Shown here piece by piece: positions 5,417 through 44,726 of a stretch of DNA of 64,000 nucleotides (its first letter is position 1; every line of letters begins with the position of its first letter). Both the position numbers and the translations under genes were made by a program. The DNA is from a virus: positions 52,445-116,444 of the IMG/VR virus record IMGVR_UViG_3300044646_002092. The stretch is one strand, 5' to 3'. Below the pieces are notes generated by a model. The model made no database searches. It saw only the letters and a program-made list of their open reading frames with translations, and was not told where the DNA came from.

Positions 5417-5866
5417 ATGTTAGGAAGTTTACCAACTGAACCAGAAGAAGTTAAGTTAGCCATCATTGATGATGAACTTAATAAACTTTATATTGATACT
5501 CAACATCTATTACAGAAATACAGTTCTCTTGTTTCTGAAAATACCCCACTCCTAATCAACCAAATTAAAAAAGCTCTCAAAGATTTAGACTTTATTTTTG
5601 AAAATCTGAGTCTCGAAAGTGAGGATTGGAAAGTAAGTTCCTGTAAGCGGGAGTACAAATACTGGTACAAACAATTTACACATTTCGATGAGCTACTTAT
5701 TCCCGAAGTTATTGAAAAATATCTTGAAGAGGAGTTGGAAAAAGAAAGGCAAAGAGAATTAGAACGTGAAAAACGTTACCAACTACAAAAAGAAGAGGTT
5801 GAAAAAGCAAAATTAAATAATAGATGGATTGACGAAATGCGCCGTACCCACTACAATACTTTTTAG
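5417..5866 (+). CDS. Hypothetical protein
   Basis: ORF in the operon; charged helical C-terminus. Confidence 0.65.
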   Translation: MLGSLPTEPEEVKLAIIDDELNKLYIDTQHLLQKYSSLVSENTPLLINQIKKALKDLDFIFENLSLESEDWKVSSCKREYKYWYKQFTHFDELLIPEVIEKYLEEELEKERQRELEREKRYQLQKEEVEKAKLNNRWIDEMRRTHYNTF

Positions 5867-5887: not shown

Positions 5888-6169
5888 ATGTCACGCACCA
5901 AGAAGCACAGAGACTTGTTTTTTCTTCAGTTTCTTCACAAACTTATCAAGTCCATCGGTAGCCCTTTTACCCATCCTCGCGCATCTCGTTGGGCTAAAGT
6001 ACGTAGCAGAGTCAGCAGACAGTATGGAGGCTCTAACTGGGGCGATAATCAGCGTGTAGATACCAAATACAACTTCACACCCAAACATCGTGCAATGAAG
6101 CGTGCAGCCCGTCGAGAAGCTTTGGAGCAAGCACAGCAACAACTTGAAGAATACGAATATGGAGACTAA
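5888..6169 (+). CDS. Basic hypothetical protein
   Basis: AAGGAG RBS upstream. Confidence 0.65.
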   Translation: MSRTKKHRDLFFLQFLHKLIKSIGSPFTHPRASRWAKVRSRVSRQYGGSNWGDNQRVDTKYNFTPKHRAMKRAARREALEQAQQQLEEYEYGD

Positions 6170-6464
6170 CCTGCGTTGGCAAGATAATGGACAATTTTCT
6201 TACGCTTGGTTCGGTATTACTAAGCTCAGCGTCGAGTATGAAGGGTCTATGCATCCAAGAGGCTCAGATTTACCTACTGGCTACCGAGTAAGCGTAGAAG
6301 GTTACAAAAAACGCGAACTCAAGCATCTTTTCTCTAAGCGAGACAATGCAAAAATTGCTGCTGAACGTCTACTCTGGAAAATTGTAAACGAAATGCACCA
6401 AGACCTATCTCAATATTCTTGGGATACGCACAACAAAGAAGAAGTTAAATGGGTGGTGAGATGA
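6159..6464 (+). CDS. Hypothetical protein
   Basis: Probable start ATG 6159 (METNLRWQ), overlapping the previous gene's end. Confidence 0.6.
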   Translation: METNLRWQDNGQFSYAWFGITKLSVEYEGSMHPRGSDLPTGYRVSVEGYKKRELKHLFSKRDNAKIAAERLLWKIVNEMHQDLSQYSWDTHNKEEVKWVVR

Positions 6465-6703
6465 TTAAATTACCGCCAAGGTTCAAAATTTTCCACAATG
6501 TTAGCGAGGACTATTACTTCATCAAAGAACGATTCTGTTTCTTTTGGTATATGACAGAAAGGGATATTATTGCTTACGATGGTTCTACAGTAATAACTCG
6601 TTACGAGAGTGTTGAAGCTGCCGAAACTGTAATCGACCAATGGCTCCGTAATAAAAAACAATCCAAAACACCTGATGAAATCAAACTGGTAAAAGAACTA
6701 TGA
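6461..6703 (+). CDS. Hypothetical protein
   Basis: ATGA-type overlaps at both ends. Confidence 0.6.
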   Translation: MIKLPPRFKIFHNVSEDYYFIKERFCFFWYMTERDIIAYDGSTVITRYESVEAAETVIDQWLRNKKQSKTPDEIKLVKEL

Positions 6704-7830
6704 CCAACGCAGTCGAAATCGTAACAATCTCTCGCATCATCCCTATCTATAAAAATGGCGAAGAAGCCTCATCAATCCAAGTCGTTAACTTCAATTTTGC
6801 CAATGGCGATGAATGTGGTTATAACGTTGTCTCACAAAAAGGCATCTATCAAGTAGGCTAAAAGGCTGTATACATCCAACCTGACTACTGCTTACCTGAT
6901 TCTTCTTTGTTCACAAGCTTCACAGCCCCAAACGGCGACCCCAACAAATCCAGACTTGGACGCAACAATCGCATTCGGGCGCTCAAGTTCAATTTCAGCT
7001 TTGAGAATAGTAGCGACCCAATCTATTCCGTCGGCATCTTACTGAATACAAACGAGCTGCCTATCGAGTTACTTGCGGCTGAAGACCTCGCAGCAGCTTT
7101 GGGCATCACTAAGTACGAAGAACCAGAGAAAGGCGCTACAGGTCAAACCAGAGGCACACTGCCTTCTTTTTTGTACTCTACTGATGAAGAAAATTGTGCG
7201 AATCTCAAATCCCACATCAATCGTGTTCTTGAAAGTGGGGCAGAAGTTGCTTACACTATTAAAGTTGACGGAAGCTCATTCACTGAGTATTTCAAGAAAG
7301 ATGCTGAAGGCAATTGGTACACAGGTATTTGCTCTCGCTCGTTAGAGAAGAAAATTACTGATGACACTGCTGATAGTTGGGTCAAACTGGCTAAGTCTTC
7401 TGGATTGTACGAGCGTGGCATGGAATATTGCAAGAAGCACAACGTCGAGTTGGCGTTTCGGGGAGAAATCTATGGTCAGGGCTTGAAAGGTAGCGGCAAT
7501 AAGCTGAATCCAGATGCTAATAAGAAGCAAGGACTAATTCTTTTCGGTATCGATAACTTATCAAGTGGTTTTGCTACTCGAATCCATTATGGTCAGCCTC
7601 ACAATCTTGAACTTGTTTGCGACGAACTGCAACTCCAATATACTCCTTTAGTAAGGTTTTTCTCCCAATTTCGCCCCAAAAATTACGACGAACTAATCTC
7701 GTTTGCTTCTGATGTTTTTAAAAGAGAAAAAGAAGCTGGTCGAGTCGTTGAGGGTATTGTCGTTCGCACACTTTACTCAAACGATTTGTCGGTCAAGGTC
7801 ATGAACCCATACTACGACAGCAAAAAATAA
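6700..7830 (+). pseudogene. RNA ligase (Rnl2/DRB0094-like) interrupted by an in-frame TAA at 6859-6861
   Basis: ATG 6700 is in frame with track ORF 6907..7830; YNVVSQKGIYQVG*KAVYIQPDYCLP matches the family's N-terminal domain; motif I (TIKVDGSS), RGEIYG, EGIVVR and a C-terminal K are present. Confidence 0.8.
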
Positions 7831-7902: not shown

Positions 7903-8117
7903 TTTCACTAACCCTACTTTTTAAAATAGGGATTAACCTAATCAGTTAGGTTAACGTAAGAAGCGAATAGCTCATTGAGACTTGATTTGGTACAGACTTC
8001 CGAATGCTTCTCTAGTTCGGATTATCTCTAAACCTGATTGTTCAGGTGTTGGGTAAAGCCAAGACATCTTAATCAAGTTGAGCGAGGAGACTTAAACAAT
8101 TTTGGGTTATACCAACA
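7903..8117 (+). ncRNA. omegaRNA (HEARO-type) scaffold of IsrB
   Basis: Directly upstream of isrB; opening hairpin (ACCCTACTTT/AAAATAGGGAT), ACTTCCGAATGCTTCTCTAGTTCGGA hairpin and GCGAGGAGAC segment typical of HEARO/omegaRNAs; boundaries approximate. Confidence 0.8.
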
Positions 8118-9215
8118 ATGCGTATTCCAGTAGTAGATACAAATCATCAACCCTTAATGCCTACTACACCCGCGAGAGCTAGAAAGTGGATTGAATCTGG
8201 CAAAGCGGTAAAACGTTGGTCAGATTGTGGTCAGTTCTACGTTCAGCTACAAGTAGAGCCATCTGGAAAAGAAAAGCAAGCTATTGTCATCGGGCTTGAT
8301 TCAGGCAAGAAATATTCAGGTATAGGTGTGCAATCTGCAAAATTCACTTTATACTCAACCCATTTAAAATTACCATTTCAGATGGTGAGGAATCGGATGG
8401 AACTAAGAGGGTTATTGCGAAGAAGTCGTCGGGGTCGCAGAATTAATCGCAAGGTAAAGTTCTCAAAACGCGCTCATAGACAATTAAGGTTCTCGAACCG
8501 CAGGAAAACTAAACTAGCCCCGTCAATCCGTTCTAATCGGCAACTAGAACTTCGTATTATATCCGAATTGTGTAAGATTTTTCCAATCAGCGCAATTAGA
8601 TATGAATATGTAAAAGCAGACATAGATTTAACTAGTGGACGCAAAAAAGCAAGGTCAGGTAAAAGTTTTTCTCCTGTTATGGTCGGTCAGAAATGGTTGA
8701 TTGAACAGTTAAATAAATTCGCCACCACTACCACTATTTTTGGCTATCAAACATCCCTAGTACGTTCTCACCTCGGTTTGGTAAAAAATAAAAATGATAA
8801 ATCAAAACCTTGCTTTGAGACACACGCTGTTGATGGAGTAGCTATTGCTTGCTCCCATTTTGTAGAGTATAAAAAATACCATAAACAAGGAGAGGATGGA
8901 GCAGATTGGGTTGGTGCAGTCAGTGTTACTAAAGCTTCTTTTTTTGTAATTCGCAGACCATCTTTTTCTCGTCGCCAATTACATTTGATAATACCAATTA
9001 AAGGTGGTGTTAGGCATAAATATGGAGGCTCTACTACCCGACACGGTTTCCGTAAGGGAGATTTAGTAAGCTCCCCTAAAGGTATTGGCTATATTAGTGG
9101 CGATACTGTAAAAGCCGTATCTGTTAGCGATTTCAACTGGAAAAGATTAGGGCAAATAGCCCCCAGTAAAATTAGATTGATACACCGTTCAAATGGGTTA
9201 GTTGTTACTTCCTAA
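8118..9215 (+). CDS. isrB: IsrB RNA-guided nickase (IS200/IS605 OMEGA; RRXRR family)
   Basis: N-terminal PLMP domain (QPLMPTTPARAR), RuvC-I GLDSG, Arg-rich bridge helix (LRRSRRGRR), RuvC-II YEYV, RuvC-III HAVD; no HNH insertion; 365 aa. Confidence 0.88.
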   Translation: MRIPVVDTNHQPLMPTTPARARKWIESGKAVKRWSDCGQFYVQLQVEPSGKEKQAIVIGLDSGKKYSGIGVQSAKFTLYSTHLKLPFQMVRNRMELRGLLRRSRRGRRINRKVKFSKRAHRQLRFSNRRKTKLAPSIRSNRQLELRIISELCKIFPISAIRYEYVKADIDLTSGRKKARSGKSFSPVMVGQKWLIEQLNKFATTTTIFGYQTSLVRSHLGLVKNKNDKSKPCFETHAVDGVAIACSHFVEYKKYHKQGEDGADWVGAVSVTKASFFVIRRPSFSRRQLHLIIPIKGGVRHKYGGSTTRHGFRKGDLVSSPKGIGYISGDTVKAVSVSDFNWKRLGQIAPSKIRLIHRSNGLVVTS

Positions 9216-38003: not shown

Positions 38004-38924
38004 TTATACCGTACTAGATGCGTGATTGAGTTTCTCTTCTTCGGTAGCGTATCTGTAATTTACAAAATCAGGGCTGGAACTTTTTATTCTTTTGCCTAGG
38101 GTAGCCTTACTTATACCTTCTAATTTTACAGCTAATCTCATCGATTCGTAATAAACATTATTTACCAAAACAGGTATACTACTAGGAGTACCAGCACCAG
38201 TCAGTTTTGCACTTATTTTAGCTCTAGCCTCCATTGTCACATCTCTTCCCATAGTTGCAGCGCTAATTTTAGCTTTAGTTTCTTCAGATGTAACTTTACC
38301 TTTCTGAAAAGCACTCATTTTTGCTCTGCTCTCAGTAGTGTGTACTCTACCCTTATTTATAGAGGCTAAATACACTATTCTTTCTTTCATCTCATCTGTA
38401 AAGGGTCTATCTTTCGCTATTTCACTCATCTTTGCTTTTGTTTCTTCAGTATGTTTCCTACCCTTACCAGCCAAACTGATTTTTTCTCTTGTTTTTTCTG
38501 AGACAATTCTGCCAGTACTTGCAGCACGCAACTTAGATTTGGTTTCCTCGGTATGCTTCTTGCCAAGTCTAGTCTGCTGACCTTTTTTGGATGCCCTCAT
38601 TTTAGCTTTCATCTCTTCTGTAAGATTAACCCCACCCCTCCCGCCAAGACTTATATTGTAGGTGTCTTCACGTTTGACAAATTCTTGAGTTACCATTTCA
38701 GCTTCGGCTAAATAAGCATCAGTAGCACAACTAAATTCAGCCAGTGTAGTCCTAATAAATTTATCTTTACCATACTTCTTCACAGCCAACTGTAAAGCAT
38801 CCCCACTTCCGATATAACACTTAGACTTAGAAGTATTTGAAAGCTTATGCACCCCCACATAAATTTTGCCATTACAAACGTTCGTAGTTTTATATAAAAT
38901 CCAAATCTCTTTATTTGTTTCCAT
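38004..38924 (-). CDS. GIY-YIG homing endonuclease with NUMOD3 repeats (copy 1)
   Basis: ILYKTTN..NGKIYVGVH...YIGSG...AVKKYGK..F; HTEETKAKMS repeats. Confidence 0.9.
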   Translation of the reverse strand: METNKEIWILYKTTNVCNGKIYVGVHKLSNTSKSKCYIGSGDALQLAVKKYGKDKFIRTTLAEFSCATDAYLAEAEMVTQEFVKREDTYNISLGGRGGVNLTEEMKAKMRASKKGQQTRLGKKHTEETKSKLRAASTGRIVSEKTREKISLAGKGRKHTEETKAKMSEIAKDRPFTDEMKERIVYLASINKGRVHTTESRAKMSAFQKGKVTSEETKAKISAATMGRDVTMEARAKISAKLTGAGTPSSIPVLVNNVYYESMRLAVKLEGISKATLGKRIKSSSPDFVNYRYATEEEKLNHASSTV

Positions 38925-39872: not shown

Positions 39873-40279
39873 ATAGTAATAGGATAAACCGTCCAACAGT
39901 AGTGTAGGTACTGGGGAGTTGTATAAGCCTTAATCAAACAACCCCATCTACCACATCCATAAATTTATTAAGTAAAAAATGAACATCTTATTTATTCTGC
40001 TAGCTGGCGAATCTTGAGTCTGCCTTACAGCACTGGGGATTTACTAAAGGTGGCTGCGAAGATGAAGGAATTTATTGGTATTCACAAGTTTTAGATAGAG
40101 TATTAAATGTGGCAGAATTTCACGATGGAGTATACCTATCTTCTAAGACTAGTAGCGATTTAATACCTAATTATCATGCTTTTCCTCATATTTTGCGACG
40201 TAGAGTAAGTTTGCTGATGTCAAATCATACTATTAGACCAATGTTTACCTCTTAAGATGGATATACATACGTCTATTTT

Positions 40280-40289
40280 GTGTTATATT
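40280..40289 (+). promoter_or_regulatory. Extended -10 promoter for the tRNA cluster
   Basis: GTGTTATATT, 7 nt upstream of tRNA-Met. Confidence 0.55.
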
Positions 40290-40296
40290 AGTAATC

Positions 40297-40371
40297 GGCG
40301 GGATGGAGCAGTCTGGTTAGCTTGCGAGGCTCATAACCTTGAGGTCGATAGTTCAAATCTATCTCCCGCCA
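40297..40371 (+). tRNA. tRNA-Met (CAT)
   Basis: Acceptor stem GGCGGGA/TCCCGCC, anticodon loop CT-CAT-AA, T-loop TTCAAAT. Confidence 0.9.
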
Positions 40372-40377
40372 TAACAC

Positions 40378-40592
40378 CCTTCCGAGTGTCTCGGATTGCT
40401 TAGTGAAAGTGGCAGTTTCAACACTGCGCTTAGCCGTATAAAGGCTAGGCTCCTACAGGTGGTCATGGAAACTAACACTGGTGTTTACGATAAGAGCTAC
40501 ATTACGTGAGTATGTAGAGTTGGGGCTGGTAATACTACAGGCTGTCAGTGGTTTCAAGAACGGTTGTAACACAGTTGAGAGCTGACCTCTTA
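40378..40592 (+). ncRNA. Unassigned multi-helix structured RNA
   Basis: At least six readable helices and no ORF; details in findings. Confidence 0.6.
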
Positions 40593-40600
40593 TTTAACTT

Positions 40601-40671
40601 GCGGTTATGGTATAAAGGAATTATTCTTGGCTTCCACCCAAGAGATGAGATATCGTAATTCTCTAACCGCT
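40601..40671 (+). tRNA. tRNA-Gly (TCC), atypical T-loop
   Basis: GCGGTTA/TAACCGC acceptor; CTTGG-CT-TCC-AC-CCAAG. Confidence 0.8.
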
Positions 40672-40674
40672 TAA

Positions 40675-40747
40675 TCCTCTATAGCTCAGTTGGTAGAGCG
40701 TCGCGCTGTTAACGCGAATGTCCTTAGTTCGAGTCTAAGTGGAGGAG
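40675..40747 (+). tRNA. tRNA-Asn (GTT)
   Basis: TCCTCTA/TGGAGGA acceptor; TCGCG-CT-GTT-AA-CGCGA; canonical D and T arms. Confidence 0.92.
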
Positions 40748-40750
40748 TTT

Positions 40751-40821
40751 GGGTCATTAGCTCATGGGTAGAGCATCTGGCTTTTAACCAGACCAAGACG
40801 ATTCGAGCGCGTCATGACCCT
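40751..40821 (+). tRNA. tRNA-Lys (TTT), atypical T-arm
   Basis: GGGTCAT/ATGACCC acceptor; TCTGG-CT-TTT-AA-CCAGA. Confidence 0.85.
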
Positions 40822-40898
40822 TTGTGATTAGCTCAGTGGATTAGAGCATTCCCCTTCTAAGGGAAGAGTCGTTGGTTCGAGTCCAACATCACAAGCCA
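40822..40898 (+). tRNA. tRNA-Arg (TCT) with encoded CCA
   Basis: TTGTGAT/ATCACAA acceptor; TTCCC-CT-TCT-AA-GGGAA. Confidence 0.92.
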
Positions 40899-40901
40899 AA
40901 T

Positions 40902-40973
40902 GGCTCTCTAGCATAATGGTATTGCAGCTCTCCTGTAAAGAGCAGATTGTCAGTTCGACTCTGACGGGAGCCT
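40902..40973 (+). tRNA. tRNA-Thr (TGT)?, with C33 in place of U33
   Basis: GGCTCTC/GGGAGCC acceptor; the perfect stem GCTCT/AGAGC encloses CC-TGT-AA. Confidence 0.65.
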
Positions 40974-43856: not shown

Positions 43857-44726
43857 ATGAGTGATACTTGGATACTTTATCAGACCACAAATTTGGTTAA
43901 CGGTAAAATTTATGTAGGGGTGCATAAATTGGCTGATACTAGCTATTCTAGAAGCTACCTTGGTAGTGGCTGTGCTTTAAAACCAGCTATCGAAAAATAT
44001 GGGAAAGAAAATTTTAGAAGGGCTACACTGGCAGAGTTCTCTTGTGCTAAAGATGCTTACGAAGCCGAGACTCAAATGGTTACTGAGGAGTTTTGCAATC
44101 GAAAAAATACTTATAATCTAAGAATAGGTGGTGAAGGCGGTATTTTCACAGAAGAAGCTAGAGTTAAAATGAGTGCGGCAGCTAAAGGAAAACAACACAC
44201 GCCTGAAACTAGAGCAAAAATGAGTGCTTCACATAAGGGAAAAATAATAACGGCTGAAGCTAAGGCTAAAATTGGCGCGGCTTCTAAAGGGAACAAACAT
44301 CGGTTAGGTAGTGTTGCTTCATTAGAGACAAGAGCAAAAATGAGTGCTTCTCAAAAAGGTAGAACTGCAAGCGAAGAAACTAAAATTAAGCTCAGCAATG
44401 CAGCTAAAGGAAGAGTACTTAGCGAGGAACATAAAGCAAAATTAAGTGCCTTACGCACAGGTAGAACTACAAGTGCTGAAACTAAAAATAAAATGAGTAT
44501 TGCTAATGGTAGACCTGTTGTACTGCATGGTAAATACTACACATCGAGCAAAAAAGCTGCTAAAATCAATGAAATAGCTCACACTACTTTACGATGGAGG
44601 CTCAATAATCCTTCTCTTAACTGGATAGAATGGCGCTATGCTACAGAAGAAGAAGTTGCTAACTTTTTGAGAGAGGGAGTTGCGGAGGTTCAAAATTTGT
44701 TTGATAACGTTGTGCGCCATACGTGA
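43857..44726 (+). CDS. GIY-YIG homing endonuclease with NUMOD3 repeats (copy 2)
   Basis: ILYQTTN..NGKIYVGVH...YLGSG...AIEKYGKENF; HTPETRAKMS repeats; 3' end overlaps the convergent fibre gene. Confidence 0.9.
   Translation: MSDTWILYQTTNLVNGKIYVGVHKLADTSYSRSYLGSGCALKPAIEKYGKENFRRATLAEFSCAKDAYEAETQMVTEEFCNRKNTYNLRIGGEGGIFTEEARVKMSAAAKGKQHTPETRAKMSASHKGKIITAEAKAKIGAASKGNKHRLGSVASLETRAKMSASQKGRTASEETKIKLSNAAKGRVLSEEHKAKLSALRTGRTTSAETKNKMSIANGRPVVLHGKYYTSSKKAAKINEIAHTTLRWRLNNPSLNWIEWRYATEEEVANFLREGVAEVQNLFDNVVRHT

Follow-up and report, generated by a model that had tools for sequence, protein, structure and literature searches.

The tRNA array and its gap

What occupies the space between the first two tRNA genes of a phage array in which the later tRNAs nearly touch one another? 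The locus lies in a 64,000-nt stretch of DNA, referred to here as the window, which is one part of a 116-kb IMG/VR virus record. The closest isolates to its phage are the Pseudanabaena phages Pam2 and PA-SR01, and the phage belongs to a freshwater cyanophage lineage. The array opens with tRNA-Met (CAU) at 40297-40371 on the + strand (62.6 bits with Rfam, also found by ARAGORN, no CCA encoded). After a gap of 229 nt (40372-40600), it resumes with tRNA-Gly(UCC) at 40601-40671 (+, found by both ARAGORN and Rfam), followed by Asn(GUU), Lys(UUU), Arg(UCU) and Thr(UGU), the block from Gly to Thr spanning 40601-40973 (+) with spacers of 0 to 3 nt. ARAGORN and Rfam were concordant for the six tRNAs, which confirms the flanks and the tight spacing of the later genes as originally described. 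The original prediction assigned the gap to a single structured non-coding RNA of about 215 nt.

The array is surrounded by a Mu-type portal gene, large tail-fibre-like genes and two GIY-YIG/NUMOD3 homing-type endonuclease genes, the latter at 38004-38924 (-) and 43857-44726 (+), on either side of the array and within about 3 kb of it. The tRNA-Gly(UCC) of the window (40601-40671) scores only 43 bits and has an aberrant T arm and loop, with AUAUCGUAAUU in place of UUCRANY; genes of this aberrant type are also found in Pam2 and in the related locus L013. Relatives begin the array with a tRNA-like gene that has a CAU anticodon and an odd D arm and was missed by ARAGORN (L003 1541-1625; L013 302-378; L005 6217-6293; L004 2675-2751). 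A search for a CCA-adding enzyme gene gave sub-threshold matches only, in two relatives. Elsewhere in the window, an RNA_ligase domain (PF09414, 34.9 bits) is present in a 307-aa protein (6907-7830) that may be relevant to tRNA repair in a tRNA-carrying phage. A 365-aa RRXRR protein (PF14239; 8118-9215) shares 73-76% identity with many copies on cyanobacterial chromosomes, and a sub-threshold match to HEARO RNA (37 bits against a gathering threshold of 83; E 1.4e-5) lies directly upstream of its gene at 7904-8097. Together, 7904-9215 looks like an IscB/IsrB-type RNA-guided nuclease element carried on the phage.

Two modules between tRNA-Met and tRNA-Gly

Loci of related phages were fetched via the neighbouring 248-aa gene and compared to the gap by blastn. 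The comparison splits the 229-nt element at positions 114/118. The first module, m1 (40372-40487, +), is predicted by RNAalifold and by its covariance model, R1, to be a 116-nt structured RNA; the second, m2 (40489-40594, +; model R2), is a predicted structured RNA of about 106 nt. An A/U-rich 3' tail, UAACUU (40595-40600, +), carries m2 to the 5' end of tRNA-Gly and is kept in L007 and PA-SR01.

The two modules are distributed separately. In L006 and L008, m1 (positions 1-114) stands directly before tRNA-Gly without m2, and m1 also occurs without m2 in L013/L019 and L015. The order in L005 is m1 (6294-6409), tRNA-Ile (6410-6483), a short hairpin, m2 (approximately 6504-6611) and tRNA-Asp, while L007 has m1 and m2 adjacent, like the window. 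PA-SR01 has no m1 and only a shortened m2, consisting of the closing stem and a small hairpin, before its tRNA-Gly. Pam2 carries neither module, and the arrays of L004 and L009 consist of the first CAU tRNA-like gene alone. Across phages, the 5' neighbour of m1 is a Met-like, Tyr-like, Ser-like or Pro tRNA or a small hairpin, and its 3' neighbour is Gly, Ile or m2. The boundaries of m1 are identical whatever its neighbours, cassette boundaries are the same in five tRNA neighbourhoods, and in every genome m1 begins directly at a tRNA 3' end or after a short hairpin trailing one. Some tRNAs are followed, 5' of m1 or m2, by a small conserved hairpin, UGGCUUAAUYGCCA (GGCAAUCGAUUGCC in L007), with copies at L003 1702-1715, L005 6484-6497, L015 5255-5268 and L007 approximately 5735-5752; the window lacks it.

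Since the modules are found apart and beside varied tRNAs, the gap resolves into two independent cassettes of about 110 nt each. We consider it reasonably probable that these are two independent small structured RNA genes, m1 of about 116 nt and m2 of about 106 nt plus its tail, carried as cassettes in the tRNA operon. The single RNA of about 215 nt originally proposed, held together by long-range helices and a pseudoknot or switch, fares poorly by comparison. All of its long-range helices (GAAAC..CACTG with CAGTG-GTTTC, GGTCA with TGACC, and AAGTGGCAG with CTGACCTCTT, the supposed pseudoknot or switch) join m1 to m2. Within the window, 15 of 15 inter-module pairs are Watson-Crick, and the minimum-free-energy fold of the whole stretch includes some of the long-range pairs. 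In L007, however, 4 of these 15 pairs, which make up the first three helices, are disrupted and none is compensated. The inter-module helices are impossible in the four m1-bearing phages without m2 and in L005, where tRNA-Ile splits the modules, so this pairing, including the putative switch, is specific to the window. The whole 229-nt stretch also folds no better than its shuffles (z -1.12, with 30 of 200 shuffles equally good). We therefore judge the one-RNA model highly improbable.

Structure and covariation

A consensus structure for m1 was derived with RNAalifold from seven distinct copies. In the window (all + strand), it comprises a 6-bp closing stem, P1 (40373-40378/40480-40485); a 6-bp P2 with an invariant UGU loop (TCCGAG/CTCGGA, 40381-40386/40390-40395); a 5-bp P4 with an invariant UUCAAY loop (GCAGT/ACTGC, 40412-40416/40423-40427); and an 8-bp P5 with a variable 7-nt loop (GCTTAGCC/GGCTAGGC, 40428-40435/40443-40450). 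Two further helices, P6 (40453-40455/40460-40462) and P3 (40398-40401/40407-40410), are weaker. The latter is an alternative to P1b (40408-40411/40476-40479), which pairs AGUG with YAYU and fits as well as P3, both variable positions being C/U opposite G. The helices form a multi-helix junction, and the junction nucleotides are invariant.

Over the seven variants, 98.7% of the m1 pair cells are standard pairs, compared with 30-42% in slid controls. Both partners have changed in four pairs, of which P4 has one and P5 three; in the shuffle control this number was reached in 1 of 500 shuffles and the observed covariation score in none of 500. In P5 alone, six of the eight pairs vary and all 56 cells are still paired. 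P1, P2, P3 and P6 show no informative variation among the seven variants. The covariation amounts to few events because only seven m1 and three m2 variants exist.

For m2, the prediction is an 8-bp closing stem, P1 (40489-40496/40587-40594, +), and a 9-bp GUGA-capped hairpin, P2 (40497-40517, +; CTACATTAC-GTGA-GTATGTAG). In L007 two pairs of this hairpin show compensatory change, and in L005 one U-A pair has become U-G. The inner helices of m2 are uncertain.

The four local hairpins of the original prediction (P2, P4 and P5 of m1 and P2 of m2) are thus all recovered in place, and three of them, P4, P5 and m2 P2, covary in relatives, so that conserved homologues with compensatory changes are on record for both modules. 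Folding energy gave a divided answer. By itself m1 beats its shuffles (z -3.15, -2.29 and -2.81 for three variants), whereas m2 alone does not (z -0.87 to -0.25), nor does the minus strand of the stretch (z -0.80). The expectation that the element folds better than shuffled sequence is accordingly upheld for m1 alone (z -3.15) and fails for m2 and for the whole stretch.

The pairs also indicate the strand. Of 224 m1 pair cells, 19 are G-U or U-G, as are many m2 cells, and because such pairs are mismatches on the other strand, the RNA is placed on the tRNA strand. A promoter-like site at 40262-40289 (+), made up of TATACA, a 16-nt spacer and a TG-extended TATATT, ends 7 nt before tRNA-Met, and its TTGTGYTATATT block is found at the same place in all relatives examined (Pam2, PA-SR01, L004-L009, L013 and L015). 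No terminator-like site was found 3' of the array. Based on the promoter-like site and the 0- to 3-nt spacing between the modules and their flanking tRNAs, the tRNA array and the modules probably form one transcript. These observations agree with the original placement on the tRNA strand within an apparent single transcription unit.

Conservation, coding potential and distribution

Across its seven variants m1 is 85-95% identical to the window copy, and m2 is 91-93% identical, compared with only 69-79% at the DNA level for the adjacent 248-aa gene. The modules behave as discrete, exchangeable cassettes under purifying selection.

Selection could in principle act on a small protein gene, or on a DNA-level signal such as an endonuclease target or a recombination site. 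One m1 frame is indeed open in all copies, and endonuclease genes lie nearby. Yet the differences between copies in this frame are radical (I>D, L>P, V>E), the frame has no start codon or ribosome-binding site and has tRNAs abutting at both ends, and m2 carries a 1-nt indel; neither module therefore looks protein-coding, and the stretch is non-coding, as first described. The G-U-specific pairing further argues for selection at the RNA level. We regard a protein or DNA-level signal as extremely improbable.

Distribution was assessed in viral contigs with five patterns drawn from separate regions of m1 and m2, in metagenomes with one scan, and in 185,579 species-representative genomes with another. 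All of these yielded the same few phage contigs, and three extra matches were chance. Model R1 finds exactly one copy of m1 per genome, always in the array, and model R2 finds m2 in three genomes only, with one copy each, also in the array. From the scans and models together, the family appears small (seven m1 and three m2 variants) and accessory. Both modules are dispensable: Pam2, L004 and L009 have neither, and PA-SR01 retains only a deletion remnant of m2. The 20-nt invariant core of m1 was found in no cyanobacterial genome among the 185,579 species representatives; the matches to it in that scan were L023, a phage contig in the wrong bin, and one chance match (L024). L023 (JBKCEW010000023.1) is a 2.9-kb contig in a Crocinitomicaceae MAG bin that mirrors the L005 array, m1 variant included (m1, tRNA-Ile, Asp, Glu), and it is probably a mis-binned phage contig.

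The arrays are mosaic and a hot spot for mobile genes. In L007, an HNH endonuclease gene (6045-6764, -) is inserted after tRNA-Gly, and beyond it lies what is left of a further tRNA-Gly, its 3' half. A tRNA-Asn-like gene of L005 is interrupted by a zinc-finger ORF of 186 aa (6869-7429, -), and a 5' fragment of the gene is left.

Such traffic raises the question of whether m1 and m2 are non-functional scars of decayed tRNAs or mobile elements that look conserved because of recent spread among close relatives. The narrow distribution, with the same few contigs in all scans, the differences in presence among relatives, the truncated m2 of PA-SR01, the homing-type endonuclease genes in or beside the arrays and an m2 fold indistinguishable from shuffles would all be expected of leftovers. 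Against this, the modules outdo adjacent coding DNA in conservation, compensatory changes hold P4, P5 and m2 P2 paired, cassette boundaries recur unchanged in the five tRNA neighbourhoods, and the modules hold no tRNA signal whatever. On balance, we find this explanation unlikely and prefer that of two small RNA genes.

Relation to known RNA families

No Rfam family was found in 40372-40600, either at the gathering threshold or at E<=10, and in the homologous stretches of L013 and L023 the search at E<=10 returned tRNAs only. Likewise, ARAGORN and cmscan with the tRNA model (RF00005, E<=10) found no tRNA in 40372-40600 or in its homologues. The RNA had been described as belonging to no catalogued class, and this description stands. 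The faint likeness to RNase P P4 that had been pointed out does not, as no RNase P RNA match was found in the stretch at E<=10. At this cutoff there were also no matches to group I introns, GOLLD, ROOL, small ribozymes or RNA antitoxins in the window, L013 or L023. The YrlA model (RF02553) reached 19.3 bits against a gathering threshold of 69, on real tRNAs at 40696-40806 and not on m1 or m2, and a Ro/TROVE gene was absent from five related phage genomes. Comparison of the modules with plasmids and isolate phages by blastn gave chance matches only, and no direct or complementary match of at least 13 nt that could mark an antisense target was found in the phage genome.

Three further resemblances were considered and set aside. 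A T-box-like UGGN pairing with a tRNA-Gly end is inconsistent with the window, which has UGGU but a discriminator base U. The likeness of the P2 region to a Synechocystis CRISPR repeat found no support as mimicry. The P5 loop reads CUGAUAA, as in an Ile anticodon loop, in L005 only; the others read GUAUAAA, GCAUAAA and UAAUAUU, and the match is probably chance since the loop is variable outside L005.

A ribozyme had been among the original suggestions, but no known ribozyme family or HDV-like fold fits. Hammerhead, twister, pistol, hatchet and HDV models gave no match at E<=10, and a loose home-made HDV-like/theta descriptor gave only scattered matches, none of them conserved between homologues. 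The modules might still be a new class of self-cleaving or processing RNA that trims the neighbouring tRNAs, as proposed for theta ribozymes, and both the start of m1 at a tRNA 3' end, or past a short hairpin, in every genome and the multi-helix junction with invariant nucleotides would suit such a role. Besides the missing family and descriptor matches, it is hard to reconcile with this role that the m1 5' end pairs with its own 3' end, unlike HDV-like topology, and that the other tRNAs of the array manage without such an element. We hold a ribozyme to be very unlikely.

Proposed release and function

The arrangement of two small RNA genes among tRNAs suggests a simple route by which both could be made. 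Transcription of the array would begin at the conserved promoter with its extended -10, just upstream of tRNA-Met. RNase P would cleave where the downstream tRNA begins (presumably at 40600/40601) and thereby create a module 3' end, and RNase Z or another 3' processing activity acting on the upstream tRNA would create a module 5' end. Since no CCA is encoded, cleavage of the RNase Z type, following the discriminator base, is to be expected. In other clusters, RNAs lying between tRNAs are thought to be freed by such processing at tRNA ends. The closing stems would then join and protect both ends of each module, giving stable RNAs. Only 3 nt separate m1 from m2 in the window, so the two may stay joined there. 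We infer these release steps from the spacing and from established tRNA-precursor processing, and on this basis m1 and m2 are most likely stable small RNAs that RNase P and RNase Z excise from the tRNA precursor, with predicted ends and stability.

What the released RNAs might do is a matter of speculation. The invariant junction, the UGU loop and the T-loop-like UUCAAY loop could fold compactly and bind a partner in trans, most plausibly, though again speculatively, a tRNA-handling protein of host or phage or a tRNA-directed defence factor. As far as our searches for a partner reach, they turned up no Ro gene, no complementary phage site of at least 13 nt and no look-alike in hosts (20-nt core) or plasmids.

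A specific version of this idea is that m1, and perhaps m2, is a trans-acting RNA with a tRNA-elbow-like fold, built from the UUCAAY hairpin and a GG-containing loop, which titrates a host tRNA-directed enzyme or defence nuclease, or else acts as a new catalytic or processing RNA. We give this a low probability; if it were true, phages would be using their tRNA operons to deliver counter-defence RNAs. Alternatively, one or both modules could be anti-defence mimics that imitate an RNA of the host, such as an RNA antitoxin or the regulator of an abortive-infection or tRNA-cleaving system, and so neutralise the system. Lys(UUU), Asn, Arg and Met tRNAs are known targets of anticodon nucleases, and the array supplies all four; the phage also has an RNA-ligase-family gene. 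Against this, the modules match no antitoxin or defence-linked family in Rfam, have nothing similar in plasmids, contain an m1 core seen in no cyanobacterial genome of the species-representative set and lack a tandem-repeat architecture. Mimicry is in our estimation quite unlikely.

Two small RNA genes remain the preferred reading, and as such m1 and m2, compact and well bounded at about 110 nt, lend themselves as candidates to structure probing and to the pull-down of partners. With so small a family, the immediate impact is moderate.

Comparison with known systems

Other structured non-coding RNAs are tied to phage tRNA genes. The large RNAs GOLLD and ROOL, frequent neighbours of phage and prophage tRNA genes, are five to eight times larger than the modules. 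The YrlA Y RNA is closer in size (about 110 nt) and shares an end-to-end stem and tRNA-linked biology with the modules, while the match to its model lies on tRNAs only. Theta ribozymes, which are minimal HDV-like ribozymes, start at the 3' end of phage tRNAs, often tRNA-Met, and could define that end; the gut phages in which they have been reported infect Bacteroidota and Bacillota (PMC10879173). Similarly, m1 starts at 40372, directly after the discriminator base of tRNA-Met at 40371. Theta ribozymes, however, are short nested double pseudoknots with a catalytic C, whereas m1 has a different topology in which its own ends pair.

The nearest analogue of m1 and m2 is a non-homologous one, the T4 pair RNAC and RNAD. 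Non-tRNA small RNAs in phage tRNA clusters, these two among them, have been known for 50 years. In the T4 annotation, RNAC (species 1, rnaC; 139 nt) and RNAD (species 2, rnaD; 119 nt) come immediately after tRNA-Arg, within a tRNA cluster that also contains the GIY-YIG gene segB. In the same way, m1 and m2 are two non-tRNA RNAs of some 110-140 nt, as predicted, that abut tRNA genes in a phage tRNA cluster, and the GIY-YIG pair of the window flanks the array much as segB accompanies that of T4. The roles of RNAC and RNAD are still unknown (PMC3014915, PMC9697503). Searches of the T4 tRNA region with R1 (filters off) and R2 gave no significant match. T4 rnaC has a canonical tRNA T arm while m1 and m2 are without one, and the T4 RNAs are known to accumulate while m1 and m2 are predicted RNAs. 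The modules would thus be a pair from a freshwater cyanophage lineage that shares its type of location with the T4 RNAs but is unrelated to them and evolved independently, which suggests that the use of the tRNA precursor as a source of other stable RNAs is a recurrent phage strategy.
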